Virus record (IMG/VR): IMGVR_UViG_3300045988_122718
Span: 64,001-128,000 of that record
Reading direction: 5' to 3' (one strand)
DNA length: 64,000 nucleotides
From: a virus
Part shown: one piece after another, positions 19,791 through 61,318 of the stretch
Layout of the letters: each line of letters begins with the position of its first letter
Numbering within the stretch: the stretch's first letter is position 1
The notes under the pieces: model-generated
What the model saw: only the letters and a program-made list of their open reading frames with translations
Told to the model about the DNA's origin: nothing
Database searches by the model: none
Translations under genes and position numbers: made by a program

Positions 19791-19819
19791 AGTATCAATC
19801 CTCCATTAATTTTGTATTA

Positions 19820-22800
19820 TTAACCACAGTGACTATACCCACATGATTTACAAATGTCACATCCCCCTTCGTGCTCAAGTAGCTCCCCACACTCTGGGCA
19901 TCTTCCGTTCTTTTCAGTAACAATCTTAATATCATTAGGAACTCTAGATTCATCATATTCTTCCTCGGAATCTGTGTCATAAGTATCTCCGATTTCATCT
20001 TGCATTTCCTTCCACATGTCTACAAGCGCATTTCCAATAGCCATAGGACAACAAGAACCCTTTGATGTGTCATGCTTTGTGGCTGTTCTTGCTGCGTAGC
20101 TTGGGCATACACCGGTTGAATCTAGCTGGTCTTTAATTGTAGCAATATCAACACCTGCTCTACATAGAAGAGATACTGTACGACTTAAACCAGTCATAAA
20201 ATTAGCACAACCACCAGTGCTACCTTTGTTGAAATATACTTCCTGCAAGTCACCATTGTATGGATCAAAGAAAGCCAATACATGAAGACTTCCACATCCA
20301 GTAGTCAGTTTGCGCTTTTTACCAATAAGGTCATCGGAACAGTTCATGATTGCACCACGTGGAATAGATTCTTCCGTCTGAATTTCTTCTTTGTTTTTAT
20401 CTTCTACAATCAATACACCTTCACGCTTACAGCCAGAACGATAAATTGTAATACCCTTTAGGCCATTCTTCCAAGCTGACATATAGATATTTTTAACATC
20501 ATCAATCGTAGCCTCATTTGGTAGATTTACTGTAGAGCTAATGCTCGCGTCAATCCCCTTTTGCCAAGCAGCCTGCATAGCTACACGTTTGTTATAGTCA
20601 ATTTCGGAAGAATCAACAAACCAATCAGGGAATTTATCGTTGACAGTAAGTCCGTGTTCGTCTGCATACTTTTGATAAATAGGGGTAAGCACATCATAGT
20701 ACTGAGTTGTTTCGTGCAGAGATTCTGTCTTACGCTTGTAGCTCTTTGCGAAAATAGGCTCAATACCACCACTGATTCCAAGCATTGTTGAGATGGTTCC
20801 GGTTGGAGCAATGGTTAGAAGTTGACTATTGCGTAGACCATAATTATCAACCATGTTTCTTGTTATGGTGTCTGCATTTGCTCTAAAGAATGGGGTATCA
20901 ATTGTTGCATTTGTATATTTAGGATATATACCCTTTTCACAAGCTAAGTGAGAAGAAACATAAATTGCGTGGTTAGCCATTGCCATAGAAATATCACGGC
21001 AGTGTTCGATTGCCTCGTCACTATCATAACGTAAATGCATCTTGATGAGCATATCAGCAACGCCGCATACCCCTAGTCCAACTTGACGCCAATCTCTTAC
21101 GCTATCTCTTTGCTCTTGTAGAGGATGAAGAGGAAGACCTTCGTCAAGAACCTCGTTTAAGTATCTAATACCAATATCTACTGTATCATAGAAATCATCA
21201 TACATAAAATTGCCATAATCATCTACAAAGGCAGACAGATTAATGGAACCGAGTAGGCATGACCCACCAGCGGGAAGAGGTTCTTCTGCACAAGGATTGG
21301 TTCCAGCATATTCGAAGTCTGGATTATTACTTAACAGATTATATTCTTCAATATTATCCCAGAATAGAATTCCTGGCTCTGCCCAGTTCCAATTGTTCTC
21401 ACATAGCTTATCAAAAATATCTCTTGCTTTTGCAGTCTTTGTGATTGTTTCACCAGTTTCTGGACGAGTAAAAGACATTACCCAATCGGTATCATCTTCG
21501 ACCGCTTGCATAAAATCATCTGTTACACGAACAGATATATTAGCTTTAGTAACGCTATTTTCTTTGGTCTTGATGTCAATAAAGTCTAGTAGGTCTGGAT
21601 GATGACAATCAAGACTAATCATTAAAGCGCCTCTGCGGCCATTCTGACCGATTTCCTCGGTTGTCTGACTATAGCCCTGCATGAAACTTACGGCGCCACT
21701 AGTCTTTTCTGCTTGATTATGGACCTTTGCACCAGCAGGGGCAAGTTTAGAAATGTCAATTCCGCAGCCTCCACCATACGAATATGTTCTTGCTAGCTTC
21801 TTACGACTTTCAAAAATAGACTCAATGTTGTCTTCTGGAGGTGCAATTACATAGCAATTATGAACAATAACACCATTTACATTATATGTATGCGTGTCTT
21901 CTACAGATAAGTTGTATACTTTGCAGTGGCAATCTTCAGAGATGCTAATTGAACTTAGAGCCGCATACTCAAAATCGCCACGTACATCAAGGCTATTTCT
22001 TCCGTCACTATATTGTTTAGACAATAGTGGATTTAAAAATTTATTAGAAATAGATACCCCAACACGAAATTCATATGTATCGGCTTGACGCTCTACGGAA
22101 TGAATAGGAGATGCGTTAATGCCATTCATCCACATTGTATAATGTAGCCAATCAATTAATTTACGATTTTTTAGCACAATACGAAATGCACCGTGTGTGT
22201 CTAACGTACCATCTGCGTCACATAGTCCGACCATCATTGGAACACAACCAAGATATTCATCAGGAACAAATTTATCGTTGCATTTTTCTCCAAAATGGTT
22301 AATAAACCAAGATGCTACAATTTCACTTTCAAACCTTAAAGCAATAACATTCTGATTGGTTTCACGATAAGATGCATGAATACCAAAAACACTTTCACCA
22401 ATAGATTTACAACGTTCAAACGCATCACGCTCTGTGGTTGCGTTGAATACGATTTGTAGAATAGATGGATTTTTATAACCACGGCGTGCCGTTATACTAC
22501 CATCACCCAACCAACGACCAATAAAATATGCAAAATCATCATCAAATACCCACTCAGCACGTACAGAGTTACCTCTATGCTGATAGGTTGTAGTTCCACG
22601 GTCATTTACAAGCGTATAAATTTGAGCCATTCCGTCTTTTACTTCAACCTTGCTATTGTCTCTAGCCTTAAATCCATCAAGAGCGGATACAATCTTTGGC
22701 GTAAGCTTAATCATATGGCGTTGTGCCATCTTGATTTTATCTTGTGCTTTAATTTGCTCAGAACAAGCAAGTATACGGTCTGCTCGTTTCCAACCGTGGT

Positions 22801-23236
22801 TTGTCAAAAATTTATGATTTGGAGTACATTTGATTGGTTCCATAAAATTTATACTTTTAAGACAATAAATATCTCCAGTATATTCACGACACATAATGTC
22901 ATTTACACGATGAAACTGTTCATCATGAGACAGTACCATGTCTCCAATAGCAATATCTTCAATATTTTTAAATCCGTCAATCGTAAGCACTTTGGAACCA
23001 GCCATAAAACAATTTGAGTAAGTGACTCTAGTGTCCTTTACACCTCGGTTGCTAAGAATACGACCACCAGGAACAAACTTCTTATTGATAATTGCTTTCT
23101 TTGCTCTCTTATTACCGCCACTTACTCTGTCTAGCCATTCATCAAATGACTCTTCGCCCTTACGATATTTTCTCATCCAAATATCAATTCCAAGTTTATT
23201 GTCTTTCCCTAACCACTGTTCTACTGTCATAGGCAT
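19820..23236 (-). CDS. nrdJ: class II (adenosylcobalamin-dependent) ribonucleotide reductase, intein-containing precursor
   Basis: The extein reads ...TYSN|CYVIAPPEDNIES.... Large RNR core motifs are present (NPCAEEPLP..GSCLLGS). The C-terminal Cys-rich tail is CPECGELLEHEGGCDICKSCG. Length is 753 aa without the intein. Confidence 0.85.
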   Translation of the reverse strand: MPMTVEQWLGKDNKLGIDIWMRKYRKGEESFDEWLDRVSGGNKRAKKAIINKKFVPGGRILSNRGVKDTRVTYSNCFMAGSKVLTIDGFKNIEDIAIGDMVLSHDEQFHRVNDIMCREYTGDIYCLKSINFMEPIKCTPNHKFLTNHGWKRADRILACSEQIKAQDKIKMAQRHMIKLTPKIVSALDGFKARDNSKVEVKDGMAQIYTLVNDRGTTTYQHRGNSVRAEWVFDDDFAYFIGRWLGDGSITARRGYKNPSILQIVFNATTERDAFERCKSIGESVFGIHASYRETNQNVIALRFESEIVASWFINHFGEKCNDKFVPDEYLGCVPMMVGLCDADGTLDTHGAFRIVLKNRKLIDWLHYTMWMNGINASPIHSVERQADTYEFRVGVSISNKFLNPLLSKQYSDGRNSLDVRGDFEYAALSSISISEDCHCKVYNLSVEDTHTYNVNGVIVHNCYVIAPPEDNIESIFESRKKLARTYSYGGGCGIDISKLAPAGAKVHNQAEKTSGAVSFMQGYSQTTEEIGQNGRRGALMISLDCHHPDLLDFIDIKTKENSVTKANISVRVTDDFMQAVEDDTDWVMSFTRPETGETITKTAKARDIFDKLCENNWNWAEPGILFWDNIEEYNLLSNNPDFEYAGTNPCAEEPLPAGGSCLLGSINLSAFVDDYGNFMYDDFYDTVDIGIRYLNEVLDEGLPLHPLQEQRDSVRDWRQVGLGVCGVADMLIKMHLRYDSDEAIEHCRDISMAMANHAIYVSSHLACEKGIYPKYTNATIDTPFFRANADTITRNMVDNYGLRNSQLLTIAPTGTISTMLGISGGIEPIFAKSYKRKTESLHETTQYYDVLTPIYQKYADEHGLTVNDKFPDWFVDSSEIDYNKRVAMQAAWQKGIDASISSTVNLPNEATIDDVKNIYMSAWKNGLKGITIYRSGCKREGVLIVEDKNKEEIQTEESIPRGAIMNCSDDLIGKKRKLTTGCGSLHVLAFFDPYNGDLQEVYFNKGSTGGCANFMTGLSRTVSLLCRAGVDIATIKDQLDSTGVCPSYAARTATKHDTSKGSCCPMAIGNALVDMWKEMQDEIGDTYDTDSEEEYDESRVPNDIKIVTEKNGRCPECGELLEHEGGCDICKSCGYSHCG
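21857..23011 (-). mobile_element. intein (385 aa) with LAGLIDADG homing endonuclease domain
   Basis: It begins CFMAGSKVLTIDG (Cys1), ends ...GVIVHN, and is followed by extein Cys+1. The two LAGLIDADG motifs are FAYFIGRWLGDGS and MMVGLCDADGT. Confidence 0.9.
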
Positions 23237-23298
23237 CTCTCCTTATCTAAATAACTTTTTATATCTACTAAGAACGGACACTTGCCGTACTTTTCGAG

Positions 23299-23454
23299 CT
23301 AACAATCCATGAGCGTATCAAATCCTTCTTGGCTAAGAAGACATTCAACAGACCCATCATCAAAAAATCTTGCAAAATGACAACCACAAGCTGCCGTTGG
23401 TTCTTTTGTAACTAAAATGCTTGTCGGACATTTATGAATTTCAAAATGCTCCAT
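23299..23454 (-). CDS. small Cys-rich hypothetical protein (51 aa)
   Basis: MEHFEIHKCPTSILVTKEPTAACGCHF... fills the gap between thyX and nrdJ. It is below the ORF-track cutoff. Confidence 0.35.
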   Translation of the reverse strand: MEHFEIHKCPTSILVTKEPTAACGCHFARFFDDGSVECLLSQEGFDTLMDC

Positions 23455-23455
23455 T

Positions 23456-24738: not shown

Positions 24739-25856
24739 ACATTTCCTCCATTAATTTTGTACTGTACAATATAATCAGACCAATTAGTACCATTATCGTT
24801 GAATAGCAGAGAATAGAAGATGGCCACCAAACAGGATGTTACGATAGAATTACCAGCCTGTTTATAAAGGGCAGAGTCACTTACGTACTTAGATGCACGA
24901 TTGCAGTCTTCATCGGAGAAGCTCATCAGCCTCCAGCATTCTTTTGGTGTTAGTTTTCTAATCCTCCATTTAATATTATCCACTACAAGCGGCTGTCTAT
25001 TGCCACCTTGTGCAGTCATAATAGTAGGAGAAACAGAATCCTGATCCCACACATTTCCAGCATATCCAGTACCAAACTGTTCACCGTAGATATTACCAAT
25101 TCTAACTGGGTTGATATCTTCTGACTCAATAACTCTCTTATCACCACAAGCATCAATAGTACGAAGTGTACCAACGACATCATCCTTGAAGAATCTTAGT
25201 CCTTCATCGCAACGCTGCTCACAAACGACGGGTTCCATTACATAATTATCCTTGGCAACAGTAGTAATAGTATTGGTAGTTCCGTTCATATTGGCTTCAA
25301 GTCTCTGCTCCGTAGGAGAACCCGTAGTTCTGTCTGATGAATTCTCTGGATTTCGACCACGAGAAGCTACAATGAAATATTCATCAACAAGAATCTTATG
25401 TGAAGTATATTCACCAGATGTTGAACCATGAGAATTTGACATAACAGTATGTGCAATACATTCTGCACTATATACTCTGCCACTCTGGTCAAAACTAGAA
25501 TCTAGCTGATCGACTTTGATAATGCTAGGCTCAATAACACCAGTCATAGACTGATTACCAAAGCCCTTATAATCTCTAGCCATAAGAGTATGTGCAACAT
25601 TTGTTAGACCATCGAATGTCGTTTCCTGATTTTTTAGATTAATACCACTAGCTTCGTTTTGTCTTGCAATAAAGTTTGCAAGAATGCTTTCTACTTTATC
25701 ACCAGAGAGGTAGTATTTCTCATCTACGGTCTTCTCTAGAATATCCTTTAGACGAGTTGTTAGAGGAATCTGCTCTGGCCAAGTAAAATCTTTCCATAGC
25801 TTGATATTTGGGTTTTTCTCAATTTCTTTCATTATTTCTTGAACTTTATTATTCAT
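24735..25856 (-). CDS. DNA (cytosine-5) methyltransferase, C-terminal fragment (TRD + motifs IX-X)
   Basis: FTWPEQIPLTTRLKDILE..., RKLTPKECWRLMSF and LYKQAGNSIV (motif X). The ATG at 25856 has an AGGTGGG RBS and overlaps the HNH stop. Confidence 0.8.
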   Translation of the reverse strand: MNNKVQEIMKEIEKNPNIKLWKDFTWPEQIPLTTRLKDILEKTVDEKYYLSGDKVESILANFIARQNEASGINLKNQETTFDGLTNVAHTLMARDYKGFGNQSMTGVIEPSIIKVDQLDSSFDQSGRVYSAECIAHTVMSNSHGSTSGEYTSHKILVDEYFIVASRGRNPENSSDRTTGSPTEQRLEANMNGTTNTITTVAKDNYVMEPVVCEQRCDEGLRFFKDDVVGTLRTIDACGDKRVIESEDINPVRIGNIYGEQFGTGYAGNVWDQDSVSPTIMTAQGGNRQPLVVDNIKWRIRKLTPKECWRLMSFSDEDCNRASKYVSDSALYKQAGNSIVTSCLVAIFYSLLFNDNGTNWSDYIVQYKINGGNV

Positions 25857-27075: not shown

Positions 27076-27621
27076 TTAATTTTGTACTGTTTCTACTTCA
27101 ACAATATGTTTCAGCACAGAATACGCTTTATCCTCGTTTAGATTACTAATAGCGTAATCAAACCCACCATGTGCTTTCATATGAATAAACTGTTTCATCT
27201 CTGCCCTATTTCTAGCAAAGAAATCTTCCACAGAATCTCCACGATACAAAGCACGGTCTAGACGAACTTCTGTAGGTACATTGATATAAATAGAACATAG
27301 GTCAATATCTTCAAGTCCCAGACTTTCTAGTGTTTCAAGCCCTGCTGGGTCGATGATATAAATATCATTATTATAAATTTGCTCAATTGTCGTCCAATAG
27401 TGGGACCCGTTAATTTCAGTATAAGCAGCCAAATTATCCTTCATTTGCTCATAAAAGGCATCGTCTACAAAAATATGCGTGTCTCCTTCATTTGCACGAC
27501 GAGGGCGAGTTGTATAGCTGATAATCTTTTTTAGACTAGTATCTTCACATAGTCTATTCACCAAAGTATCTTTACCAGCACCAGTTTCAGCCATAATGCA
27601 AAACAACTTATGATTACTCAT
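27076..27621 (-). CDS. guanylate-kinase-like nucleoside monophosphate kinase
   Basis: P-loop AETGAGKDT and SYTTRPRRANEGDTHIFV (GMP-kinase-type motif). GAGGAG RBS before the internal ATG. Confidence 0.6.
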   Translation of the reverse strand: MSNHKLFCIMAETGAGKDTLVNRLCEDTSLKKIISYTTRPRRANEGDTHIFVDDAFYEQMKDNLAAYTEINGSHYWTTIEQIYNNDIYIIDPAGLETLESLGLEDIDLCSIYINVPTEVRLDRALYRGDSVEDFFARNRAEMKQFIHMKAHGGFDYAISNLNEDKAYSVLKHIVEVETVQN

Positions 27622-27953: not shown

Positions 27954-27998
27954 TTAATTTTGTACTGTAAGTATAACACCACTTGCAATATTTGTCAA
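27954..27998 (-). promoter_or_regulatory. sigma-A promoter + leader box
   Basis: In - sense: TTGACA (27993-27998, overlapping the ligA TGA), 17 nt spacer, TGTTATACT (-10 at 27970-27975), then ACAGTACAAAATTAA (27954-27968). Confidence 0.65.
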
Positions 27999-40272: not shown

Positions 40273-40680
40273 TTAATCAAATGTCTCTTGAATATATCCA
40301 TTATCCGTTGTATAGTTAATCTTTTTAATGCCAAGGCTCTTGATAAGTTTTTGACATCCAGGACATGGTTTACTCAATGCTTTTGTGCCATTTTTCCACT
40401 CTCTATATATGTAAATCTGTACATCTTTCCAGTTGATGTCTTTGCGATTCATAAGTGGTAAAAGCGCAGACGTTTCTGCGTGAAGAAAATGATTCGTATC
40501 TCCGTCAAAACGTTCTTTATTGAGTTCTTTCTGAAGTGGGTGTGTTTTCATAATATTACAACCGCTTGATATAATACGGTGGCCACACACTATGACACAT
40601 CCTATATGATGCTTTTCAAAATCACTCAATTCAGAAACTGCTCTGGCTGCATTAAAATATGTTCTATCCTTTTTCGTCAT
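40273..40680 (-). CDS. dCMP deaminase
   Basis: HAETSAL (H-A-E) and PCPGCQKLI (PC-x-x-C) zinc motifs. Confidence 0.85.
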   Translation of the reverse strand: MTKKDRTYFNAARAVSELSDFEKHHIGCVIVCGHRIISSGCNIMKTHPLQKELNKERFDGDTNHFLHAETSALLPLMNRKDINWKDVQIYIYREWKNGTKALSKPCPGCQKLIKSLGIKKINYTTDNGYIQETFD

Positions 40681-40697
40681 AAATTAATTTTGTACTG

Positions 40698-41204
40698 TTA
40701 ATCCTTTTTAATAATTGCCCACACGTCATTATATGTAACACTTTTACTTAGTGCCTCATCGTGTGTCTTAACCAAAACATCAATATGATTGCCGTTTACG
40801 GCACCACCTCTATCTTGAGCCGTTCTATATCCAATTCCATCAATATAAACTTTTGTGCCATATGGGATTACACTTGGATCAACTGCAATTGTTGTTCCAA
40901 CATCTGTAGGTGCTCCAGATGCGGTTACTCCAGACCCTCCACAAATATGTTCCCTCCTTTCATCACAATAGTAAGTAATTTTATATGATCCGAGGTACAT
41001 AAATTCAACACCAGGAGATTTTAGGTCCTCAATTTCTTGCTTCAATCGAGAATTTTCATCATCCTTTACAGAAATCACCTCGTTCAATCCATCAATAGAA
41101 CTACTCATCATAGAGATTTCGTTATTTTTCAAATGGATTGTCATTACAAGCAAAACAATCACCGTAGCCAAAATAAGATAAGATATGTATTTCTTTCTAA
41201 TCAT
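40698..41204 (-). CDS. membrane-anchored 3D-domain protein (cell-wall-active, MltA/Sps-like)
   Basis: N-terminal TM, coiled coil, then the 3D domain GVTASGAPT...VDPSVIPYGTKVYIDG...DRGGAV.GNHIDV. Confidence 0.75.
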   Translation of the reverse strand: MIRKKYISYLILATVIVLLVMTIHLKNNEISMMSSSIDGLNEVISVKDDENSRLKQEIEDLKSPGVEFMYLGSYKITYYCDERREHICGGSGVTASGAPTDVGTTIAVDPSVIPYGTKVYIDGIGYRTAQDRGGAVNGNHIDVLVKTHDEALSKSVTYNDVWAIIKKD

Positions 41205-41223: not shown

Positions 41224-41267
41224 TTAATTTTGTACTGTAATTATAACAGATATTTTCTATTTGTCAA
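41224..41267 (-). promoter_or_regulatory. sigma-A promoter + leader box
   Basis: TTGACA (41262-41267, overlapping the TGA of the upstream gene), 16 nt spacer, TGTTATAAT (-10 at 41240-41245), then ACAGTACAAAATTAA (41224-41238). Confidence 0.65.
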
Positions 41268-42835: not shown

Positions 42836-42879
42836 TTAATTTTGTATTATAATTATAACGCAAATTTCTCATTTGTCAA
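42836..42879 (-). promoter_or_regulatory. sigma-A promoter + leader-box variant
   Basis: TTGACA (42874-42879), 16 nt spacer, TATAAT (42852-42857), then ATAATACAAAATTAA (42836-42850). Confidence 0.6.
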
Positions 42880-45152: not shown

Positions 45153-45284
45153 TGGTGGGCCTGGAGGAACTCGAATCCTCGACCAATAGCTTAATGGTGG
45201 GAATGGCAGGTGCTGCCCCTACTTGCAAAAGCTTTTCTGAATACACCCCCAAGGCTACTGCTCTACCTACTGAGCTACAGACCC
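45153..45284 (-). tRNA. tRNA-Lys(UUU) interrupted by a 56-nt tRNA-like minihelix
   Basis: GGGTCTG-TA-GCTC..GAGC-A-GTAGC-CTT[56 nt]TTAA-GCTAT-TGGTC-GAGGA-TTCGAGT-TCCTC-CAGGCCC-A-CCA. The length is 76 nt after removal, and the body resembles bacterial tRNA-Lys. Confidence 0.8.
45195..45250 (-). ncRNA. nested tRNA-like minihelix (intron candidate) in tRNA-Lys
   Basis: GGGGGTG-(21 nt)-GTAGG-GGCAGCA-CCTGC-CATTCCC-A-CCA: a 7-bp acceptor-like helix (2 G-U), a 5-bp stem, a 7-nt GGCAGNA loop, a discriminator and CCA. Confidence 0.7.
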
Positions 45285-46001: not shown

Positions 46002-46124
46002 TGGCAGGGGTAGCAGGGTTCGAACCTACGATGCGGGAGTCTGGTCAAGGTAGTTGGTACTGCCCCAACTAAATTCACTTGAATACCTTGAAAGTCCCGT
46101 GCCTTACCACTTGGCTATACCCCT
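46002..46124 (-). tRNA. tRNA-Gln(UUG) interrupted by a 49-nt tRNA-like minihelix
   Basis: AGGGGTA-TA-GCC-AAGTGGTAA-GGC-A-CGGGA-CTTT[49 nt]GAC-TCCCG-CATC-GTAGG-TTCGAAC-CCTGC-TACCCCT-G-CCA. The body resembles bacterial tRNA-Gln (GCCAAG.GGUAAGGCA, weak 1-72 pair, G73). Confidence 0.8.
46042..46090 (-). ncRNA. nested tRNA-like minihelix (intron candidate) in tRNA-Gln
   Basis: CAAGGTA-TTCAAGTGAATTTA-GTTGG-GGCAGTA-CCAAC-TACCTTG-A-CCA. Confidence 0.7.
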
Positions 46125-48731: not shown

Positions 48732-50285
48732 TTAAGAGTTCTTCAATGCGGCTTCCACCGCATCATATCTATCACTCATAAGCGTCTCAACTAGACACTC
48801 ATAAGGATCGGGTTTACCACTCATAACCATCTTGCAAACATTAGTGGAGAATCCGCTAACAAGAGCAACACCAAGGTCATTCTCCTTTACATGAATAGTT
48901 CCAGTGCGAGAATTTACATTCCAGAAGACTAGTCTAGGCATCTTATACCCAGCATACTCGAAACGCTTTTTGATCACATTAAAAAGTCTTGCATTAGGTC
49001 TATTAATACCATATCTAGCGGAACCATCACATGTTGCACAAGAGTCAAACTCCATGTCTGAAATAATGAGTACATTCTTAGGCATATCCTCTTGCTTCAT
49101 ACGACCATTTACCGCAGTAGTAAGAATCAAATCAAACACCTTTTCAATGTTTGTATTCGAACACTCGTCATGACCATACGCAACACATAACTTATCTCTC
49201 AGAGAATCGCACTGACTAAAATCAACCAACTGAGGTCTGCTAGAGAAAGTAATATATTTATCTTTAAAGTCTCCAGAAGAATGTTCTGCAAAGTAAATTG
49301 CAAGTGCATTTGCAACTTCAAGTGCAGTAACACGGCTACTTTCACCAACGTTACAACACATAGAAGCAGAACCATCTGCAACTACAATGGTGTTTCCACA
49401 CTCATTTACTGTATCAGGCAAAGCCCTCCAAAGAGATTCAAGAGTTGCATCATACTTGTTGACATAATTATTCCATCCAATTGTGTTAGAATACTTATGT
49501 ACAATGTCGTGAGGGAACAAAGTTCTAGCATTAATCTTAGTTTCACCATTTTCAAGCTTACTTAGATACTCTCTGCGACGCTCCTTATCATTACGAAGGA
49601 AAGCTCCGTTATAAATGAGATTTGCACGAGAAGGAACCGTTTCGTACTTAATGTCTCCCCATTTCTTTGCAGACATCTTACTTTCTACAATGTCAATGTA
49701 AGAACGCAGAGAAGAAAGAATCTTACGATACTTACGCTCTGTCATTCCAAGATTCTTGCAAATGTATCTTGCATCCATCTTAGTTTTTGCAGAAGAAGCA
49801 TTCACAGAAGGAAGCCACTTTGCAAGAAGAGATACGGGCTTATTATCAGCCATATTTGCAATGTCATCGGTGAGCTGCTTTTTGATGATGTCAAGAATAA
49901 CACCATCTACATCTGTTCCAAACAGACACCATAGGTCATCATAACGACCATACTCACTCACTAGAGGAGCAAGATGCTTAACAATGTCAACGTCATCCTT
50001 TACCATATTCTTAAGAATCACTCTGAACAAATGTCTCTCACCAAGACCACCATGAACATCTCTGGCGAAGAACAGCCAACGTAGAGCCATCATTTTATCT
50101 TCAAAATAAGCCTTAGTAAACTTATTATAGATATTCTCCTCACTCATACCACGCATAGAAGAAACTGCAAAGTTTAGGTCAACCAGTTCCTTACCAGAGG
50201 TACGATACCCAAGAGCGCCATTCTCAGTTACTGAATAGTTGAAATCCTCGTTCAGAGTATTCTTTACTGCATTCATAAAAGACAT
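48732..50285 (-). CDS. TROVE/DUF2828-like + vWA domain protein (Ro60-related candidate)
   Basis: The N-terminus VTENGALGYRTSGKELVDLNF...RWLFFARDVHGGLGER resembles DUF2828/TROVE. The C-terminal half has the vWA MIDAS motif VVADGSASM (D-x-S-x-S). A GGAGG RBS precedes the ATG at 50285. The size is Ro60-like. Confidence 0.6.
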   Translation of the reverse strand: MSFMNAVKNTLNEDFNYSVTENGALGYRTSGKELVDLNFAVSSMRGMSEENIYNKFTKAYFEDKMMALRWLFFARDVHGGLGERHLFRVILKNMVKDDVDIVKHLAPLVSEYGRYDDLWCLFGTDVDGVILDIIKKQLTDDIANMADNKPVSLLAKWLPSVNASSAKTKMDARYICKNLGMTERKYRKILSSLRSYIDIVESKMSAKKWGDIKYETVPSRANLIYNGAFLRNDKERRREYLSKLENGETKINARTLFPHDIVHKYSNTIGWNNYVNKYDATLESLWRALPDTVNECGNTIVVADGSASMCCNVGESSRVTALEVANALAIYFAEHSSGDFKDKYITFSSRPQLVDFSQCDSLRDKLCVAYGHDECSNTNIEKVFDLILTTAVNGRMKQEDMPKNVLIISDMEFDSCATCDGSARYGINRPNARLFNVIKKRFEYAGYKMPRLVFWNVNSRTGTIHVKENDLGVALVSGFSTNVCKMVMSGKPDPYECLVETLMSDRYDAVEAALKNS

Positions 50286-50530
50286 TTTCTTTCCTCCATT
50301 TTTTTGATTTATTTCTAAATCCCAAGACACATTATTATGTACAATCTCCACATTAAAAATTTGCTGTTAGTGTCTTTGGAGTTTATTCAACGAGACGCCA
50401 AAATAAAACCATTAGTAAAAATATCATTTTCATCTTTTTAAATTACTGTAAGCGTCTCTATGTAAGGCAAGGCACCATCAATACAAATCCATATCATATT
50501 ATGTAAAGTTGCTGTTAGTGCCTTTTTAAA

Positions 50531-50648
50531 GTCTCCTGACAGGACTTGAACCTGCGACCTCTGGTTTAACAGACCAATTAGAAACTTGCTATTTAAGGCT
50601 TTTACAAGTCTCGTTATTAAGCGCTCTATCCGACTGAGCTACAGGAGA
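50531..50648 (-). tRNA. tRNA-Asn(GUU) copy with a 44-nt insertion between the D-arm and anticodon stem
   Basis: TCTCCTG-TA-GCTC-AGTCGGATA-GAGC-G-[44 nt]-TTGGT-CTGTTAA-ACCAG-AGGTC-GCAGG-TTCAAGT-CCTGT-CAGGAGA-C. No CCA is encoded. Confidence 0.55.
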
Positions 50649-50686: not shown

Positions 50687-50731
50687 TTAATTTTGTACTG
50701 TGATTATACCACAGATTACTTATTTTGTCAA
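50687..50731 (-). promoter_or_regulatory. sigma-A promoter + leader box driving the tRNA-Asn copy
   Basis: TTGACA (50726-50731), 17 nt spacer, TGGTATAAT (-10 at 50703-50708), then ACAGTACAAAATTAA (50687-50701). Confidence 0.65.
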
Positions 50732-51217: not shown

Positions 51218-51262
51218 TTAATTTTGTATTGTGATTATAACATACTTTCTTGAACTTGTCAA
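51218..51262 (-). promoter_or_regulatory. sigma-A promoter + leader-box variant
   Basis: TTGACA (51257-51262), 17 nt spacer, TGTTATAAT (-10 at 51234-51239), then ACAATACAAAATTAA (51218-51232). Confidence 0.65.
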
Positions 51263-51311: not shown

Positions 51312-51340
51312 TATTATAGCACATTAATTTTGTTTTGTCA
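51312..51340 (-). promoter_or_regulatory. sigma-A promoter (tandem, upstream of the previous one)
   Basis: TTGACA (51335-51340, overlapping the TGA of the PurA-like gene), 17 nt spacer, TGCTATAAT (-10 at 51312-51317). Confidence 0.6.
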
Positions 51341-52486
51341 AGTATCTTTTTTAAATAATTTTCTAGTTTCTTCATAAGACAGGTACTTAATATTAATGCC
51401 CGTCAAATTCAGCAGTTTTTCATTTTTAAACTCGTTAACATGAGTTACTGCCAGAGACACCTCATAGGCAATATCCCCAATATCTTCCTTAATTCTTTGC
51501 ATAAGCTCACCAACATCAAGATGCCCATACCGAATAGACCCCTGATACTGGTTTGTAATATTGGTCTTGTCATCAATGTTAATGTTAATCTCCGACTTGT
51601 CACATTCACATTCAAAATCACCAGCACCATGCTTCGTCATATATGTTCTAGTAACATAGCACACTTCAACGTTTGCATTAGGTAAATACTTTTCAATGAT
51701 TATATGAGGATTTGCAATGCCAGTATTGCTAGGAGTCGTATTATCATAATACTGAACATGACGCTGATCCAACAGCAATCCTTGCCCATTTTCAAATATA
51801 ACGTTATCAAACTTTTGCAAAATCCTACTATAATCAAATACTACATGAGAATGTATAAACTGCACATCGTCAATAAAGTTATAAATCAAATTGTCGGATG
51901 CCAAAATATCTTCCCATTCCTGCAAAACTTCAGGACTAGCCTTTAGCAGCCTCTTAGACGTATATTCATCCCTGACACGCTTAAGAAATGCGACCTGCTC
52001 GTCCTTAGTCATATTATAAAACTGCTGGAAAGACGGACTTGTAGTATTCCTATATCTAAGAACAGTTTCCCAAATACCCATACCACAAGAGCCATACCGA
52101 TTTTTGCCACGACTATCCTCAAGGATTTGATTTGTAATCATATCATATGGAGTAGACCATCTGCAATTCCAATGACTATAAACACGAGGTGCATAGCCTA
52201 ATGCCTTCAGTTCCTCGTACTCTTTTCTAAAAGTCATAGGATTTAGAATATACTCTTCCCCAAAATAAGTATCTGCTCCCGCAAAGGTTCCTGAACCAAA
52301 ATGGTGGAACACATGTCTAATGTCATCTGGAGTAACTACAGTATGTCCTCTTTGTGCGCCGCCATTGCATAGAGCAACGATACAAGATTCATTCCGCTTA
52401 CTTGCTTCGGCACAAAAGTAATCGGTCATCAGACCTTTTCCCTCGTCGCCAAAATTGCTGCCAATTACTACCTTAACATTAGACAT
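51338..52486 (-). CDS. adenylosuccinate-synthetase-like (PurA family) enzyme, divergent
   Basis: P-loop VVIGSNFGDEGKGLMTDYF, GGAQRGHTV and YGSCGMGIWET parallel the PurA motifs (GDEGKG, N-A-GHT, TTG-GIGP). The ATG at 52486 follows AAAGGA. Confidence 0.65.
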   Translation of the reverse strand: MSNVKVVIGSNFGDEGKGLMTDYFCAEASKRNESCIVALCNGGAQRGHTVVTPDDIRHVFHHFGSGTFAGADTYFGEEYILNPMTFRKEYEELKALGYAPRVYSHWNCRWSTPYDMITNQILEDSRGKNRYGSCGMGIWETVLRYRNTTSPSFQQFYNMTKDEQVAFLKRVRDEYTSKRLLKASPEVLQEWEDILASDNLIYNFIDDVQFIHSHVVFDYSRILQKFDNVIFENGQGLLLDQRHVQYYDNTTPSNTGIANPHIIIEKYLPNANVEVCYVTRTYMTKHGAGDFECECDKSEININIDDKTNITNQYQGSIRYGHLDVGELMQRIKEDIGDIAYEVSLAVTHVNEFKNEKLLNLTGINIKYLSYEETRKLFKKDT

Positions 52487-52500
52487 GTGTTTATCCTTTC

Positions 52501-53355
52501 TTACCAAGAAATACCTTCACTAGATGTTGCTACATTGCCACCAGAAAACGCATTGGTGACAATATCAATGATGTCGTCTGCAATCTTATCAACAGATGTA
52601 TCCTTCAGATGATTCTCGTCCAGAAGCTGTCCGAAAGTCTTATGAACATCCTCCTGATAACGACCATAACCATGCTTGACATACAGGTGATAGATATCAA
52701 ACTTCTCGGATGCATCAATGTAAAGCTGCGTCGTTTCAATATCATTCTGTAGGTCATCACCAGTCACTGCAGATAGAGCCTTCTTCGGCAGATATGGATT
52801 CATAGGCTCATCACCCATAGTGATAATGACACCCTTCTGTCCACGATTCCAGCAGTCTAGCTTCGTGTGGTTAAGGCCGAAATACCATGCGGCGCTATAA
52901 GACTCATAAGCATTACCTCCGCCGCCGCCCTCAAAATAAATCTTATCAAGCTGTTCTGCGATACGGATATCAGACTCAAACTGGGATGCCTGAATTGGAG
53001 CGCAATCGTAAGCAAGGTCCCCAATGCCCATAACCATAAACTCTACGTCTGCGATATTCTCGTATAGTTTGGTCATTACTACGTTGATCTGCTTTGCAAC
53101 TTCCATAGCCGCCTTGCCCATGCTACCAGTTACATCGAGTGCTAGAATAACAGGCTTGGTATTAGGATGCTCCACAGAATCAACACACTCACGCATTACA
53201 TTCTTGGGATCAAGGTCTGCTACTAGCATTCTAGATCTGAAATTGTCCTGCACATTAGAGGACATTCCAGTGACTACACCGTCCATTGACACGTTGTACC
53301 CCTTGGTAGTCGTATAAGAGGTAAAAGCGCTTCTAGTCCAACTGCCACCGCCCAT
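52501..53355 (-). CDS. von Willebrand factor A (vWA) domain protein
   Basis: The MIDAS motif is LALDVTGSMG (D-x-T/S-x-S), with a beta-alpha pattern typical of vWA. Confidence 0.7.
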   Translation of the reverse strand: MGGGSWTRSAFTSYTTTKGYNVSMDGVVTGMSSNVQDNFRSRMLVADLDPKNVMRECVDSVEHPNTKPVILALDVTGSMGKAAMEVAKQINVVMTKLYENIADVEFMVMGIGDLAYDCAPIQASQFESDIRIAEQLDKIYFEGGGGGNAYESYSAAWYFGLNHTKLDCWNRGQKGVIITMGDEPMNPYLPKKALSAVTGDDLQNDIETTQLYIDASEKFDIYHLYVKHGYGRYQEDVHKTFGQLLDENHLKDTSVDKIADDIIDIVTNAFSGGNVATSSEGISW

Positions 53356-53357
53356 TC

Positions 53358-53933
53358 TTACTCAGCCTCACTTTCATCATCAATATCAAAATCAAACATG
53401 CCACTAAACATGTCGGATACATTGTTGCCGTTCATAAGCATCATCATAGGAAGCATAGAATTCATACCATTGCCGGTGCCACTGTTGCCCTTCATCATCT
53501 CGGACATAATCATATAAGACATCATCTTGTCCATACCCTTCTTGCCCTTCATGAAGTTGTTGCCGAACATGGATACAATCTTGCCGTAGAAATAAGTGCT
53601 ACCCATAAAGACATGGCGCTCAGGAAGAATAGTTTCTACAGTAGAGTCCTCGTAGTTGATTACGGTGATAGTGTCCTTCTCAGCCTTAATCACACACTTG
53701 GGCTTACCAGAAACCAGAATGATGTCGCCAACCTCAACCTTGTTCGTAGGCATAACAAAGAAGAACTCTTCACCAATGTCAAAAACAAAGCTGTCACAAT
53801 TCGTCAGACGACCATTCTTTACATTGTAGCTCTTGTAACCATTAGAAGTCTTGACCGCGATACCACCGTTCATAGAAAGTCTGCACATACCAGGTGCAAT
53901 CTTGCCGAACATACCATTAAATACGTTTGTCAT
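53358..53933 (-). CDS. hypothetical protein with Met/Gly/Asn-rich C-terminal tail
   Basis: The ATG at 53933 follows AAAAGGAG and the leader box. The C-terminus is MMSYMIMSEMMKGNSGTGNGMNSMLPMMMLMNGNN. Confidence 0.55.
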   Translation of the reverse strand: MTNVFNGMFGKIAPGMCRLSMNGGIAVKTSNGYKSYNVKNGRLTNCDSFVFDIGEEFFFVMPTNKVEVGDIILVSGKPKCVIKAEKDTITVINYEDSTVETILPERHVFMGSTYFYGKIVSMFGNNFMKGKKGMDKMMSYMIMSEMMKGNSGTGNGMNSMLPMMMLMNGNNVSDMFSGMFDFDIDDESEAE

Positions 53934-53955: not shown

Positions 53956-54013
53956 TTAATTTTGTACTGTCTTTTGATGATTGAATAATACCACATCAAC
54001 TTCATTTTGTCAA
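53956..54013 (-). promoter_or_regulatory. sigma-A promoter + leader box (box displaced 14 nt from the -10)
   Basis: TTGACA (54008-54013), 17 nt spacer, TGGTATTAT (-10 at 53985-53990), then ACAGTACAAAATTAA (53956-53970). Confidence 0.6.
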
Positions 54014-54088: not shown

Positions 54089-54117
54089 ATTATAGCACCA
54101 GATGTTTTATTTATCAA
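54089..54117 (-). promoter_or_regulatory. sigma-A promoter (tandem)
   Basis: TTGATA (54112-54117, overlapping the dnaE TGA), 17 nt spacer, TGCTATAAT (-10 at 54089-54094). Confidence 0.55.
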
Positions 54118-57529: not shown

Positions 57530-57540
57530 CTCCCCCTACT

Positions 57541-57582
57541 TTAATTTTGTACTGTTATATCATACTTCTTCTTCTTTGTCAA
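57541..57582 (-). promoter_or_regulatory. sigma-A promoter + leader box
   Basis: TTGACA (57577-57582), 17 nt spacer, TGATATAAC (-10 at 57554-57559), overlapping ACAGTACAAAATTAA (57541-57555). Confidence 0.6.
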
Positions 57583-59164
57583 GTTTAACATAATCATTCA
57601 TTGTAAGCTGAAAAAACTTATTGCGACCATAATACGGGGCTGCCAAAGTGCCAATCCCAACAAACTCTCCGTTATTATCCATAGTTTTCCACGACATATC
57701 GTTCCACTTGACTAGAATAACTCCACTCTCATCAATAATTTTTAAATGTTTCTTAGTAGAGAATGTACTCACTTCATAGTTATCGGTTCTAATAAGCACT
57801 GTAACCGCTGGGGAATCTTTCCCACTGATACGATTAAAAGCGTTAAGCTGCTTAATGAGTTGTTCATTTACCTGTTCTGCTGTGATTTCAATATCAGCCT
57901 CAATATCGACACTAAATTCAATATCTGCTAGTTCATCTTCTATGACATTTCTAAACTGTTCAAATTTATCTGTATCACAAGTAAACCCAGCCGCCGACTC
58001 ATGTCCGTCACAACGAGCTAGACCAGTATTGTTTACTATACCCATGAAATCTGGGATTCCTATGGCCCTCATGCTGCCAGATATTGTGTCACCATAATCT
58101 CTAACTACTATAAGGGGGCGCTGGAATTCTGATAGCAAACGGTTCCCGACCAAGCCCGTTATATCCGCATCTGTTTCGTCAATGAAAAACACCATAAACT
58201 TTTTATCCAATTGCTCTTCACCTTGCTTCATAAGGTCTGGTAATATTCCATTGACAATCTCATTCTGCTCTTCACGACACGCTTTAAGTTTTGGATAAAT
58301 TTCAGCAATTTCATCCTCATCTTCTGCCAAAAACATTTGTGCGGACAAATCATTATGCCTTGTTCTAATTGCAGCATTAACTAGTGGGGCAATACTAAAT
58401 TGAATAGCTTCTGTATTAAACTGATAAGTGCCGATCATTTTTTTAACAATTGGATTTTGATATTGGTTTAATCCCTTGCTAACGATATACCGATTTTCTG
58501 GCTCTGCAAGTGAGCAGACATCTGCAACGATTCCAACTGCTCCATACCACCATAAATCATCTGCATAATCAGTAAGATTCATTTCATCACAATATAAGCA
58601 GCACTTAAGCACAACACCAGCACCTGACAGTTGGCTATTCGGGTAATCTACTGCGCTACTTACAAGAACAAACGGAACATTACTATTTAATAATTCTTGG
58701 CTCGGAATATGATGATCCATCACAATCAAAGAAATTCCAGAGTCTGTAATTTTTTTATATATACTAGGGTCATTATTAAGACTGTCTACTACAATAATAA
58801 TATCTACTCCATCAAAAACTTCCAAATCTATGTTCTGTACGCCATGTTCCTTCTTGTCGTGTACAAAATATGAGACATCTGCGCCGGCTCTTTGTAGGTA
58901 TTTGGTCATAATTGCTCCAGCAGCATGGCCATCTTGGTCTTCGTCCCACACTACGCAAAATTTATATCCCATTGCTATTCCATCGTCAATAATTTCATAC
59001 GCCTTGTCTATGTTTTTTAACTTCTCAAATGGGATTAAGGAGTCCTCACTTGGGTGCAAGAACTCCTGAATATCTTCAATTTCTCTATCATCAAGTATGG
59101 TTTCTATAATTTCACCATTATCCATACCACGACAATCATATTTTGCCTTTAATACTTTCTTCAT
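57560..59164 (-). CDS. DHH-family phosphoesterase (RecJ-like single-strand exonuclease)
   Basis: Motifs DEDQDGHAAGA, VVDS, MDHH and GHESAAGF (DHHA1). Confidence 0.75.
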   Translation of the reverse strand: MKKVLKAKYDCRGMDNGEIIETILDDREIEDIQEFLHPSEDSLIPFEKLKNIDKAYEIIDDGIAMGYKFCVVWDEDQDGHAAGAIMTKYLQRAGADVSYFVHDKKEHGVQNIDLEVFDGVDIIIVVDSLNNDPSIYKKITDSGISLIVMDHHIPSQELLNSNVPFVLVSSAVDYPNSQLSGAGVVLKCCLYCDEMNLTDYADDLWWYGAVGIVADVCSLAEPENRYIVSKGLNQYQNPIVKKMIGTYQFNTEAIQFSIAPLVNAAIRTRHNDLSAQMFLAEDEDEIAEIYPKLKACREEQNEIVNGILPDLMKQGEEQLDKKFMVFFIDETDADITGLVGNRLLSEFQRPLIVVRDYGDTISGSMRAIGIPDFMGIVNNTGLARCDGHESAAGFTCDTDKFEQFRNVIEDELADIEFSVDIEADIEITAEQVNEQLIKQLNAFNRISGKDSPAVTVLIRTDNYEVSTFSTKKHLKIIDESGVILVKWNDMSWKTMDNNGEFVGIGTLAAPYYGRNKFFQLTMNDYVKLDKEEEV

Positions 59165-59173
59165 TCACATCAC

Positions 59174-59353
59174 CTATCCAAAAATACACCCAGACTCAAA
59201 GCAGCACCCATCTAAATCTTCTCTGGTCTCATTTATTTCCACACAAGCAAGAACACATACTCCTTCATAACGATAATTATTATCTTTGTCCATAAACGAA
59301 ACAAGTACTGTTTTGCCAATGGACGGCAGCTCATTCATCTTATGCCAAATCAT
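59174..59353 (-). CDS. DUF551-like small protein
   Basis: MIWHKMNELPSIGKTVLVSF pattern. The RBS is GAAAGAAGG. Confidence 0.45.
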   Translation of the reverse strand: MIWHKMNELPSIGKTVLVSFMDKDNNYRYEGVCVLACVEINETREDLDGCCFESGCIFG

Positions 59354-59511
59354 CAAATACCTTCTTTCTAAACAAATCAAACTTTCGGAAGAACTTTCCC
59401 CATGGTAAGCAACACCAATATGTTACTCTATACCTACCATTTAAAGTAGTCTCGTAATAATGCCAAAAGCCGAAAAACGAATAAATCTTTTGCCATAGTG
59501 TCTTTTTCATA

Positions 59512-59742
59512 TTAGTCCTCCTTAACCAAATCTACTGCAATAATAAACTTATCAGCATCCATACACCAAAAGTCCTTGCAATAGCCGCACCCTCTCGCTA
59601 ATTGTGTATGCTCTTTATCCAAGTGTAATGCACAAAAAATAGGGGCACCTAAAACTTTATCATTTTCGCATTCAATCACTTTGTGAACTACATATTTACA
59701 ATAATCGCAACAAGGGATACATTCTTCACTACATTTCCTCAT
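59512..59742 (-). CDS. hypothetical Cys-rich protein
   Basis: CSEECIPCCDYCKY...CGYCKDFWC. Confidence 0.5.
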   Translation of the reverse strand: MRKCSEECIPCCDYCKYVVHKVIECENDKVLGAPIFCALHLDKEHTQLARGCGYCKDFWCMDADKFIIAVDLVKED

Positions 59743-60233
59743 AGTCTCCTCCCAATTTCATTCGTAATCTTTTCGGCTTCTCTAATTTCTTTCTCTGCTT
59801 GTTTACAAATGCTGTCAATGTCCTTTTGAACAAGTTCGAGCATCCCTCTCATATCTTCGTTGTGCTTGTACTTCTTCTTTATATTTTGTTTATGTTTATC
59901 CCAATAATAGAATCTGATGTATGAGAATAATTTAAATTTGACTTTATATTTGTTTCTAAACTTTACACTAAGTCTACGATACATATCATATCCATCATAT
60001 TCTTCTTTAATATTTAAAGAACATAGTTTCCCATCATAATCGTATCCTATTTCATATCTGTCTGGATTTAAATTATAAAAATCTATAAAATCTTTGAAGG
60101 ATAAAAATATTTCACTTTTGCCATCATCATAACCACTCTGATTGAAATACTCTTGCTTTATAGCAAACACCGCTACAAAAATAGGAACACCAATAATTGT
60201 ACAAAATATCAAACATCCAATCGGAAATATCAT
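59739..60233 (-). CDS. hypothetical membrane-anchored protein
   Basis: N-terminal TM (IGCLIFCTIIGVPIFVAVFAI). Confidence 0.5.
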   Translation of the reverse strand: MIFPIGCLIFCTIIGVPIFVAVFAIKQEYFNQSGYDDGKSEIFLSFKDFIDFYNLNPDRYEIGYDYDGKLCSLNIKEEYDGYDMYRRLSVKFRNKYKVKFKLFSYIRFYYWDKHKQNIKKKYKHNEDMRGMLELVQKDIDSICKQAEKEIREAEKITNEIGRRL

Positions 60234-61261
60234 AACTCCTCCTCCAACTCCGTTTCGTCTTTTATGTTTTCTGCCAATATATATTCAAGAACTTCCTTAC
60301 CTTCGTCAGAGGCCGAAGCCTTGGCTGGAAGATCTAAACATTCTTCCCAATCAAAATAACTTATTTGTAAATCTCTCATAGTTGCTACACTACGCAACAT
60401 ATCTATATTTCTTTTAGTATTATTCAATGGTAAATCATTATCAAGCATAAAAATTACTTTCTGTGGGTTTAGCGATAGAATCATCTTTGCCTGATATTCT
60501 GATAGGCTATTGCTGCCAAGTGCTACCGCATTGTGGTAGCCATAACTTGCACATTGTAACACGGACTTTTCACTCTCGAATATCATTACTGTACCACCAT
60601 ACATTAAACTATAGTTAGTGCTATAGCCGAAGAGTGTTTTGCTCGTTTGACATGGAACTAAATAAAGGTACTTTGGGTCATCATCATTGTCAGTTTCGTA
60701 GTTGCGTCGCCCCTTCAAGCCCATCAAGCTCCCATATTGATCACGAATAGGTATTACAATTCTATCTGTATTTACATCATATGAGATACCAAATTCCATT
60801 TGTGTTTCAAGTGATATATGGTCGCGCTGGAATCTTACATTTGGGACCTTTAGATATGCATCTAAGATTAATTCGTCATATGTTTTTGGAGGAGCATCTA
60901 CTTTATGTATTATATTTTCATAAACACCTCCAAAAATGAGACGACGGCTTTGAGGTCGCCAGTCATCTGATAGGTGGAGAATACGTTTGATTGTTGTAAG
61001 TATAGTTCTAAAGTCTGTATGCTTTTCTTTAATAATATATGAAACAATATCGCAATGCTCAGACCTTGCGTAGTCTGTTACATTGAGATAGTCATTATTC
61101 TCAAGCCTTATACGAATGTTCTGTCCGCCTTCACTGTTTCTAGCAAAGCGAATCTCGTTTCTTTTGATGGTTATATGCTCAAACTCGAACTCCTCAAGGA
61201 GGGTGCAAATGTTTTCTGGGTCTTCTAATAGCTGTTTTTTTAGTTCTGAAATCACATTCAC
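60230..61261 (-). CDS. dnaG: DNA primase (TOPRIM domain, DnaG-like)
   Basis: TOPRIM: MIFESEKSVL...VIFMLDNDLP (E...D-x-D). Confidence 0.75.
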   Translation of the reverse strand: MNVISELKKQLLEDPENICTLLEEFEFEHITIKRNEIRFARNSEGGQNIRIRLENNDYLNVTDYARSEHCDIVSYIIKEKHTDFRTILTTIKRILHLSDDWRPQSRRLIFGGVYENIIHKVDAPPKTYDELILDAYLKVPNVRFQRDHISLETQMEFGISYDVNTDRIVIPIRDQYGSLMGLKGRRNYETDNDDDPKYLYLVPCQTSKTLFGYSTNYSLMYGGTVMIFESEKSVLQCASYGYHNAVALGSNSLSEYQAKMILSLNPQKVIFMLDNDLPLNNTKRNIDMLRSVATMRDLQISYFDWEECLDLPAKASASDEGKEVLEYILAENIKDETELEEEL

Positions 61262-61274
61262 ACCACTCCTTTCG

Positions 61275-61318
61275 TTAATTTTGTACGGTTATTATATCAT
61301 AAAATTTGGATTTGTCAA
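61275..61318 (-). promoter_or_regulatory. sigma-A promoter + leader-box variant
   Basis: TTGACA (61313-61318), 16 nt spacer, TGATATAAT (-10 at 61291-61296), then ACCGTACAAAATTAA (61275-61289). Confidence 0.65.

Follow-up and report, generated by a model that had tools for sequence, protein, structure and literature searches.

The window analysed here is a stretch of 64,000 nucleotides of viral DNA (positions 64,001 to 128,000 of the IMG/VR record IMGVR_UViG_3300045988_122718), in which a 15-nt sequence, hereafter the box, is repeated along the coding strand of a large gene cluster. We consider it likely that the box is the operator of an MrpR/SroF-type repressor, in which case a temperate phage distantly akin to SPβ would have in it an equivalent of the SPβ repeated element (SPBRE). 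The box is a defined motif with a recurrent placement at promoters and gene boundaries, the same genome encodes a homolog of the repressor, and box and repressor vary together among related genomes.

The 15-mer ACAGTACAAAATTAA, also written out as ACAGTACAAAATTAAT, has 16 matches in the 64-kb window at two or fewer mismatches, against 0.56 expected and a maximum of 3 in 100 shuffles. Fifteen of these lie on the − strand, spanning positions 19806-61289 on the coding strand of a 45-kb gene cluster, and one lies on the + strand; the window scan found no box in the stretch of structural genes (~1-17 kb, + strand region 1-16.8 kb). The information content drops to background beyond 15-16 nt, in promoter-linked and promoterless copies alike. 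A preliminary description of this DNA, made from the sequence alone, had reported a box repeated about 15-fold on the − strand, and all 14 copies that it listed are present where it had placed them, nine of them exact. That list lacked the copy at 51324-51338, which lies inside a promoter spacer. The inverted copy that it reported near the integrase gene (int) is present as well, although its true position is 18296-18310 on the + strand, where it overlaps a degenerate − strand copy. The boxes and the adjoining integrase gene are as follows.

61275-61289, − strand: box ACCGTACAAAATTAA, 1 nt past the −10 of promoter 61318 (TTGACA-16-TATAAT); the primase gene starts 13 nt further on
57541-57555, − strand: exact box overlapping the end of the −10 (TATAAC) of promoter 57582; precedes a 70-aa open reading frame (ORF) and the gene for the alpha subunit of DNA polymerase III (PolIII)
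53956-53970, − strand: exact box, displaced by 14 nt downstream from the −10 of promoter 54013 (TTGACA-17-TATTAT)
51324-51338, − strand: box ACAAAACAAAATTAA in the spacer of promoter 51341-51313, its ACA being common with the −35 TTGACA
51218-51232, − strand: box ACAATACAAAATTAA, 1 nt past the −10 of promoter 51262
50687-50701, − strand: exact box, 1 nt past the −10 of promoter 50731; heads a 118-nt tRNA-like RNA (50531-50648) and no coding gene
42836-42850, − strand: box ATAATACAAAATTAA, 1 nt past the −10 of promoter 42879
41224-41238, − strand: exact box, 1 nt past the −10 of promoter 41267; precedes a 3D-domain (YorM-like) gene
40684-40698, − strand: exact box, promoterless; the upstream stop codon ends on its first base
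38652-38666, − strand: box ACAATATAAAATTAA, promoterless; adjoins the stop codon upstream, and the RNA ligase gene starts 15 nt further on
35192-35206, − strand: exact box, 1 nt past the −10 of promoter 35235 (12/12 match)
27954-27968, − strand: exact box, 1 nt past the −10 of promoter 27998
27076-27090, − strand: exact box, promoterless; it ends in the stop codon of a guanylate-kinase-like ORF, 14 nt before a methyltransferase start
24751-24765, − strand: exact box, promoterless; wholly in the 3' end of a methylase ORF, 12 nt before the NT5C start
19806-19820, − strand: box ATAATACAAAATTAA; abuts the stop codon of the ribonucleotide reductase (RNR) gene, with only a weak 10/12 promoter candidate at 19860
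18296-18320, both strands: inverted box pair, a + strand box ACAATACAAAATTAA (18296-18310) overlapping a degenerate − copy AGTACAATTAAT
17137-18288, − strand: tyrosine integrase with intact catalytic residues (TGLRLGE, HSLRH, GH…Y)

Promoters were called by our own regular-expression scan for sigma-A-type hexamers and by a separate tool scan. Ten of the 15 − strand copies, as well as the copy near int, overlap a sigma-A promoter, lying in its spacer or else past the −10 but before the ribosome-binding site, and three placements can be distinguished: next to the −10 (8 copies), displaced downstream (53956) and in the spacer (51324). Each of the eight boxes at 61275, 57541, 51218, 50687, 42836, 41224, 35192 and 27954 begins 1 nt past the −10 or overlaps its end, and their promoters match the sigma-A consensus at 10-12 of 12 positions (near-perfect TTGACA-16/17-TATAAT). 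The nine promoter-linked boxes of the preliminary description, eight at the −10 and the one at 53956 displaced by 14 nt, were found again by both scans. In the promoter-abutting copies the predicted transcription start falls at the A of GTACAAAA, which places ACAGT at −5 to −1. The first 5-6 bases of the box are thus upstream of the predicted start, and they are as conserved as in the promoterless copies. A spacer arrangement like that at 51324 also occurs in relatives of this phage (contigs L004 at 13078, L012 at 14107 and 14203, and L002 at 13474 and 21488).

Two strong sigma-A-type promoters on the − strand, at 54117-54089 and 50849-50821 (11/12 and 12/12 matches), carry no box; immediately beyond the PolIII stop codon, the former is followed by a stable hairpin. 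Both may be early promoters outside the control of the repressor.

The five remaining − strand boxes, at 19806, 24751, 27076, 38652 and 40684, have no promoter above chance level in either scan, as had been claimed; the only candidate among them is a 10/12 match (GTGACA-17-TATAGT) at 19860. They sit within long operons that have few terminators, and three promoterless copies match the box at 15 of 15 positions with no trace of promoter hexamers. Their overlap with coding sequence is also as first described. The ORF at 25922-24735 reads in frame through box 24751 (ending …VQYKINGGNV), that at 27645-27076 (guanylate-kinase-like) terminates on the TAA of its box (ending …VETVQN), and at 19806, 38652 and 40684 the upstream stop codon TAA gives its last A as the first base of the box. 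Since these copies overlap or abut reading frames in different frames, the constraint is on the nucleotides and not on the protein. This nucleotide-level conservation, read in two different frames, bears out the earlier view that the box is functional in itself. Every gene-linked copy is in sense orientation; the copies end 3-22 nt before the next start codon, and the ribosome-binding site starts 1-5 nt past the box. The dCMP deaminase gene (at 40680) has its ATG 3 nt past box 40684 and lacks a ribosome-binding site.

At homologous positions in three relatives (L163:12838, L069:10858 and L131:7221, corresponding to 8708 in the source contig L159 described below), a G+C-rich hairpin GGGAGAttaatTTCTCCC followed by TTT directly precedes a promoterless box and then an AAA_24 gene. 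Simple promoter occlusion gives no explanation for such a terminator-like hairpin immediately before a promoterless box.

A different arrangement is found at int. The inverted pair lies between the int promoter (TTGACC at 18350-18345, TATAAT at 18326-18321) and the int ribosome-binding site; its degenerate − copy, AGTACAA-TTAAT at about 18306-18317, comes after that promoter (TTGACC-18-TATAAT). The integrase itself was considered as the MrpR-like repressor and rejected, as it has the full catalytic motifs and no similarity to YopR; it is not the repressor and is probably a regulated target. The ~700-bp non-coding stretch at 18300-18990, which separates int from the end of the early operon, contains three copies of another repeat, TACCACAATT, and an HTH_17 (Xis-like) ORF on the − strand (18671-18865). 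This stretch is probably attP with integrase arm-type sites.

The candidate repressor is encoded outside the window. A look-up of a window protein in public assemblies led to the source contig (L159/L160, ~155 kb; JGI 3300056084 Ga0252325_00018; ENA ERZ28598412 scaffold_24), in which the reverse complement of the window begins at L159 position 9487. The mrpR-like gene (L159:4736-5641, 301 aa) lies ~4 kb past the high-coordinate end of the window. Its product matches the Pfam family MrpR_N_CB with an E-value of 6.7e-15 (56 bits, cutoff 27), and a phmmer search of the PDB gave 9rd5 as the best hit (2.9e-11, residues 3-254), with the YopR/MrpR chains 8bjv, 8bj6 and 8a0a at about 1e-10. With BLAST, SPβ YopR was not detectable as a homolog in this phage. 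The gene is preceded by a YopP-like integrase-family gene, as in the yopP…yopR operon of SPβ. In an alignment, the box-I Arg and the HxxR motif are absent from both the MrpR-like protein and YopR, and are kept in the window integrase and in the YopP-like protein; a Tyr of the MrpR-like protein aligns with the catalytic Tyr column, which is unreliable at 24% identity. These profile and structure-database matches identify the product of L159:4736-5641 as a predicted MrpR/SroF (YopR) homolog encoded in the same genome.

The 9.5 kb of this contig that adjoin the high-coordinate end of the window contain seven more boxes. In the promoter of the mrpR-like gene, cTTGACAAAATTAATATTGTACTGTAGAAT, a reverse box ACAGTACAATATTAA overlaps a forward half-box in the spacer; upstream, the promoter of an sro-like operon carries a box in its spacer (L159:2562), and five further boxes lie in the same 9.5 kb. 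Over the window and this adjoining DNA all boxes are co-oriented except the reverse members of the two inverted pairs.

A megablast search with 8 kb against GenBank phages gave no close DNA match, and relatives were therefore sought through proteins: IMG/VR genomes were gathered via PolIII, via the MrpR-like protein and via a neighbouring gene. Scanning IMG/VR for the box itself returned, among the matches listed, mostly scattered single matches, and the contig scan repeated for relatives gave only three distant ones. In the relatives the box is of lineage-specific types, which are given here by contig with the identity of their MrpR-like protein to that of the present phage.

L161-167, L044, L069 and L131 (71-88% identity): box ACAnTACAAAATTAA, about one per 2.5 kb, coding strand
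L026 and L004 (45% identity): a mix of …AAAATTAA and …AAAATGAA (TTAA and TGAA endings)
L009/L170, L002, L015 and L018 (36% identity; PolIII 71-78%): box tACAnnACAAAATGATTAa
L176 (distant MrpR-like ORF): box aaTAACATATAAAACA

The copies in every genome belong to one lineage-specific box type. In the relatives with 36% identity the diverged box, also given as ACAAAATGATTAA, behaves like the one in the window: in L009/L170 the variant fills all three promoter placements as well as promoterless gene boundaries, and the mrpR-like promoter has an inverted pair of its own variant box, ACCACAAAATGATTGCAATAATCATTTTGTTATGTTATAAT. One box type per genome, with the type tracking a fast-evolving repressor, is what an operator/repressor pair that sets immunity specificity predicts. 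In L006-L008 no box of this kind was found, and CCACAATCGGAGGT comes after the promoters there. The third box, aaTAACATATAAAACA, occurs in about a dozen co-oriented copies in the 21 kb of L176 (IMGVR_UViG_3300042923_000607), where the ORF at 4423-5421 is the distant MrpR-like one (profile E-value 2e-15).

The phage itself resembles SPβ in its early genes. For the PolIII alpha subunit, identity reaches 55% with the protein of Clostridium phage c-st and 48% with its counterpart in phiCD211, and the annotation of phage c-st names these genes as homologs of YorF/I/J/L of SPβ. A blastp comparison of window ORFs with SPβ ORFs recovered yorJ, yorK, yorL, yorS, mtbP, nrdE, yomI and yomG at 22-31% identity with their order kept, and the synteny with the SPβ early region takes in the intein-bearing nrdE and the tape-measure gene. 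SPβ gene homologs in the same order argue that the window constitutes the early/replication arm of a temperate phage that is SPβ-like but distant.

In SPβ, MrpR (YopR) was found by ChAP-seq at ten early promoter regions bearing the SPBRE, from which a 15-bp motif was derived; binding and repression were confirmed by electrophoretic mobility shift assays and lacZ fusions, and MrpR has a tyrosine-recombinase fold without recombinase function (Kohm et al., PMC10516654). The related SroF of phage phi3T, for which a DNA-bound structure has been described, clamps an asymmetric A-tract box as a monomer and has multiple sites across the phage genome (bioRxiv 10.1101/2025.11.27.690993). Our own scan of SPβ gave ~12 SPBRE copies (…ACAAATACAAAWAATATGTATA…) co-oriented with the genes, lying within the TAGACA-17-TATAAT promoter at yorZ, yonP, yosX and yorE and between the −10 and the ribosome-binding site at yopV, yopM and yonX. 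The placement classes, promoter spacer or −10 to ribosome-binding site, are therefore the same in both phages. Both also have an asymmetric A/T-rich motif of ~15 bp or longer around an ACAAA core, present 10-20 times in the orientation of the early genes, and a syntenic replication module. Next to a YopP-like recombinase gene both encode an integrase-fold repressor, which here is a predicted one that appears to lack the catalytic residues. Furthermore, the specificity of the box varies between related phages here, and the known SroF boxes differ from one another too. The present phage nevertheless differs from SPβ in several respects. It is distant in its shared genes, and its box is a different and shorter one (15-16 bp). 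About one third of the copies are promoterless and overlap coding ends, and the repressor and int promoters hold inverted pairs. Finally, binding was measured for SPβ MrpR and is predicted here.

Hence, the most likely explanation is that the box is a DNA operator to which the MrpR-like protein would bind and thereby repress transcription. A repressor of the MrpR/SroF (YopR) type, with a predicted tyrosine-recombinase fold that appears to have lost the catalytic Arg-His-Arg, would bind each asymmetric box as a single unit. At about ten strong sigma-A early promoters, where the box extends over −5 to +10, over about +8 to +22, or over the −35/spacer, the bound repressor would block binding or escape of RNA polymerase, and the genes of replication and nucleotide metabolism would as a result be silent in the lysogen. 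The inverted pairs at the repressor and int promoters could provide autoregulation and control of the integrase. At the five promoterless boxes, at gene boundaries in long operons, the same protein most likely binds as well, and it would there be an additional obstacle to read-through transcription; this elongation block is a speculative step, taken by analogy with the stoperators of Cluster A mycobacteriophages.

At stoperators, a monomeric repressor of the L5 gp71 type blocks elongation, and the stoperator sequence co-evolves with the repressor (PMC9283540, PMC6550527). Stoperators resemble the present boxes in several respects: many short asymmetric sites are oriented with transcription, in very short intergenic gaps and at promoters, some of them overlap the −35, the repressor acts as a monomer, and the sequence of the site changes along with that of the repressor. 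However, the gp71 repressor consists of two helix-turn-helix domains and the candidate here has a predicted recombinase fold, so that no homology is claimed; the stoperator is 13 bp long and occurs in both genome arms, as opposed to no box in the 17 kb of structural genes here. For MrpR-type proteins an elongation block is offered by analogy only. It is possible, but to our mind doubtful, that the promoterless boxes are orientation-dependent elongation roadblocks, in a convergent and structurally unrelated strategy resembling that of stoperators, or else that the same 15 nt have a second, RNA-level role at gene starts.

Several observations weigh against the operator interpretation. The match of the candidate repressor to Pfam MrpR_C_cat, at 21.4 bits, is under the curated cutoff of 27. 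The sequence likeness between the SPBRE and the box is modest, ACA..TACAAA…AAT(G) being common to both at ~12 of 18 positions with one gap and in A/T-rich DNA, and the phi3T box is unlike the present one apart from its CAGTA…TTAATG ends. The conserved extent is only 15-16 bp here, compared with the 24 bp read by SroF. The co-variation is confounded, as the box type also follows the overall phylogenetic divergence. Lastly, the promoterless copies make up 5 of the 16 copies in the window and, by a relaxed promoter test, about half of the non-redundant copies in the relatives; start codons follow 3-22 nt further on, and some of these copies extend into coding sequence. The published picture of SPβ operators predicts no such copies, and our scan of SPβ found no promoterless SPBRE overlapping a coding end.

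Four other explanations are possible, yet all of them are less supported than an operator for the MrpR-like protein. The preliminary description had offered three functions, namely an RNA processing site, a binding site for a translational or antitermination factor and a DNA site for a phage regulator. The last is favoured by the repressor homolog and the co-variation together with the spacer copies, the untranscribed first 5-6 bases, the inverted pairs and the absence of RNA structure; for the other two no positive support emerged, although an RNA-level function is still conceivable at the promoterless copies. A leader acting at the RNA level, either as a cleavage site that gives uniform 5' ends or as a site for a translational regulator or enhancer before the ribosome-binding site, would account for the uniform sense orientation of gene-linked copies close before start codons, for promoterless copies exactly at gene starts and for the dCMP deaminase gene, which has a box and no ribosome-binding site; cleavage past ACAGU would, moreover, presumably yield ends resembling the predicted primary 5' ends. 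Such a leader is nonetheless unlikely. The first third of the box would be untranscribed at the promoter-abutting copies and is equally conserved there, while the spacer copies, which are not transcribed from their own promoter and have no ribosome-binding site after them, still follow the box type of their lineage. Inverted pairs at the mrpR-like and int promoters suit DNA rather than RNA, and one copy heads a tRNA-like RNA, which agrees with the earlier remark that a function before a tRNA transcript is not purely translational. Folding of six box contexts gave z-scores of −0.3 to +1.1 and no consistent structure at the box, the sole exception being an unrelated hairpin downstream of box 50687, and an Rfam scan gave tRNAs only, without a match to any known leader or riboswitch at a box. 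Among ~40 window proteins scanned with Pfam and PHROG there was no candidate nuclease or RNA-binding factor, nor a sigma factor or RNA polymerase. SPBRE copies in SPβ, too, abut ribosome-binding sites, yet they are proven DNA operators (PMC10516654).

The DNA-level signatures would apply equally to another DNA-binding protein of the phage, such as the YopP-like integrase-family protein, whose gene is directly upstream of the mrpR-like one, the integrase, whose gene adjoins an inverted pair, or some helix-turn-helix protein. We regard this as quite improbable, given that the established partner in SPβ and phi3T is MrpR/SroF, that inverted pairs are found in the mrpR-like promoter of two lineages with different boxes, and that the region near int has a repeat of another kind, TACCACAATT, closer to what is usual for the arm sites of an integrase. 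A passively duplicated promoter cassette, in which a discriminator and an initially transcribed sequence are tuned for sigma-A with no partner in trans and the promoterless copies have decayed, fits the fixed register of the box at most strong promoters and the different conserved post-promoter sequence CCACAATCGGAGGT in the related L006-L008. It is very hard to reconcile, however, with three perfect promoterless copies that lack any trace of hexamers and lie in coding sequence in two frames, with a box position that varies relative to the promoter (−5, +8, spacer), with the inverted pairs and with the single lineage-specific type of all copies in a genome. Least probable of all is that a phage RNA polymerase or sigma factor, such as an enzyme of the YonO type, uses the box as its promoter, with a second, host-independent start at each copy. 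The box is indeed short, strictly oriented and upstream of genes, it is present without a visible sigma-A promoter and in some relatives directly past a hairpin, and the SPβ gene list includes yonO. SPβ YonO is an RNA polymerase that serves late genes. The boxes, by contrast, lie in an early region with strong sigma-A promoters, and none was found among the structural genes. Transcripts that began at the box or after it would in many cases lack the ribosome-binding site or leave it little room, the reverse-oriented boxes at the mrpR-like and int promoters do not fit, and inspection of 73 kb revealed no gene for an RNA polymerase.

Other classes of repeated sequence were considered by reasoning only. 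Chi- or KOPS-like polar sequences, iterons and parS are disfavoured by the placement at gene starts and promoters and by a poor sequence match, and the boxes of host factors (CodY, Spo0A, boxA) and complementarity to 16S rRNA are disfavoured by placement and a poor match as well. The start-associated sequences (SAS/ESAS) of Cluster K phages, ~13 nt that are conserved in sense orientation immediately before a subset of start codons (PMC3203893), resemble the box in being a conserved sense sequence near gene starts. Their defining features are absent from the box: an SAS contains the ribosome-binding site and stands at a fixed distance from the start codon, at protein genes only, whereas the box lacks GGAGG, precedes the ribosome-binding site at a variable distance, ends anywhere from 3 to 22 nt before the start codon, and also occurs in promoter spacers, as inverted pairs and before a non-coding RNA.

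In summary, the system is best filed under a kind that is already known, the SPBRE and its repressor, with an uncultured distant lineage and the promoterless copies as the new elements; the promoterless copies imposed on coding sequence are its unusual part. If the box is indeed an operator for the MrpR-like protein, the combination of an integrase-fold repressor with a repeated operator would extend beyond the Bacillus arbitrium phages to temperate phages of ~150 kb that are known only from metagenomes and whose replication genes are related to those of c-st and phiCD211. The box types …AAAATTAA, …AAAATGATTAA and AACATATAAAACA, each with a diverged repressor, would then form a natural series in which to study how the DNA specificity of a monomeric recombinase-fold protein changes and how immunity groups originate. 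The boxes would also flag the early promoters and the operon layout of an uncultured phage, and the promoterless copies hint that such repressors may halt elongating polymerase as well.

The − strand cluster encodes replication proteins (a DnaB-type helicase, a primase, a RecJ-like DHH protein and PolIII alpha), the 3D-domain protein, a dCMP deaminase, a serine hydroxymethyltransferase and a PurA-like enzyme. It further encodes an RNA ligase, a polynucleotide kinase, an NAD ligase, the guanylate-kinase-like protein, methyltransferases, NT5C, ThyX, an intein-containing RNR, an ORF at the dUTPase position and 13-16 tRNAs. The + strand at 1-16.8 kb encodes giant structural proteins. The large subunit of the RNR (19820-23236, − strand) is split by an intein (Hint/Intein_splicing, aa 76-460), as in SPβ nrdE. 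An adenylosuccinate synthetase homolog of 389 aa (51338-52507, − strand; Pfam 7e-33) is located in the replication module and is followed by two ORFs without an assigned function (52501-53355 and 53358-53933); a PurZ-like role in 2-aminoadenine DNA is conceivable.

Three Rfam tRNA matches on the − strand, at 45156-45284, 46005-46124 and 50531-50648, are unusually long (118-129 nt) and were not called by ARAGORN. In the one at 50531-50648 the acceptor, D and T arms are intact and ~57 nt stand in place of the anticodon loop; it sits between a box promoter and a DUF2828/DUF7788 gene (48732-50351), in a cluster that also contains the RNA ligase and polynucleotide kinase genes. These three could be intron-bearing tRNAs or tRNA mimics similar to Y RNA/YrlA.

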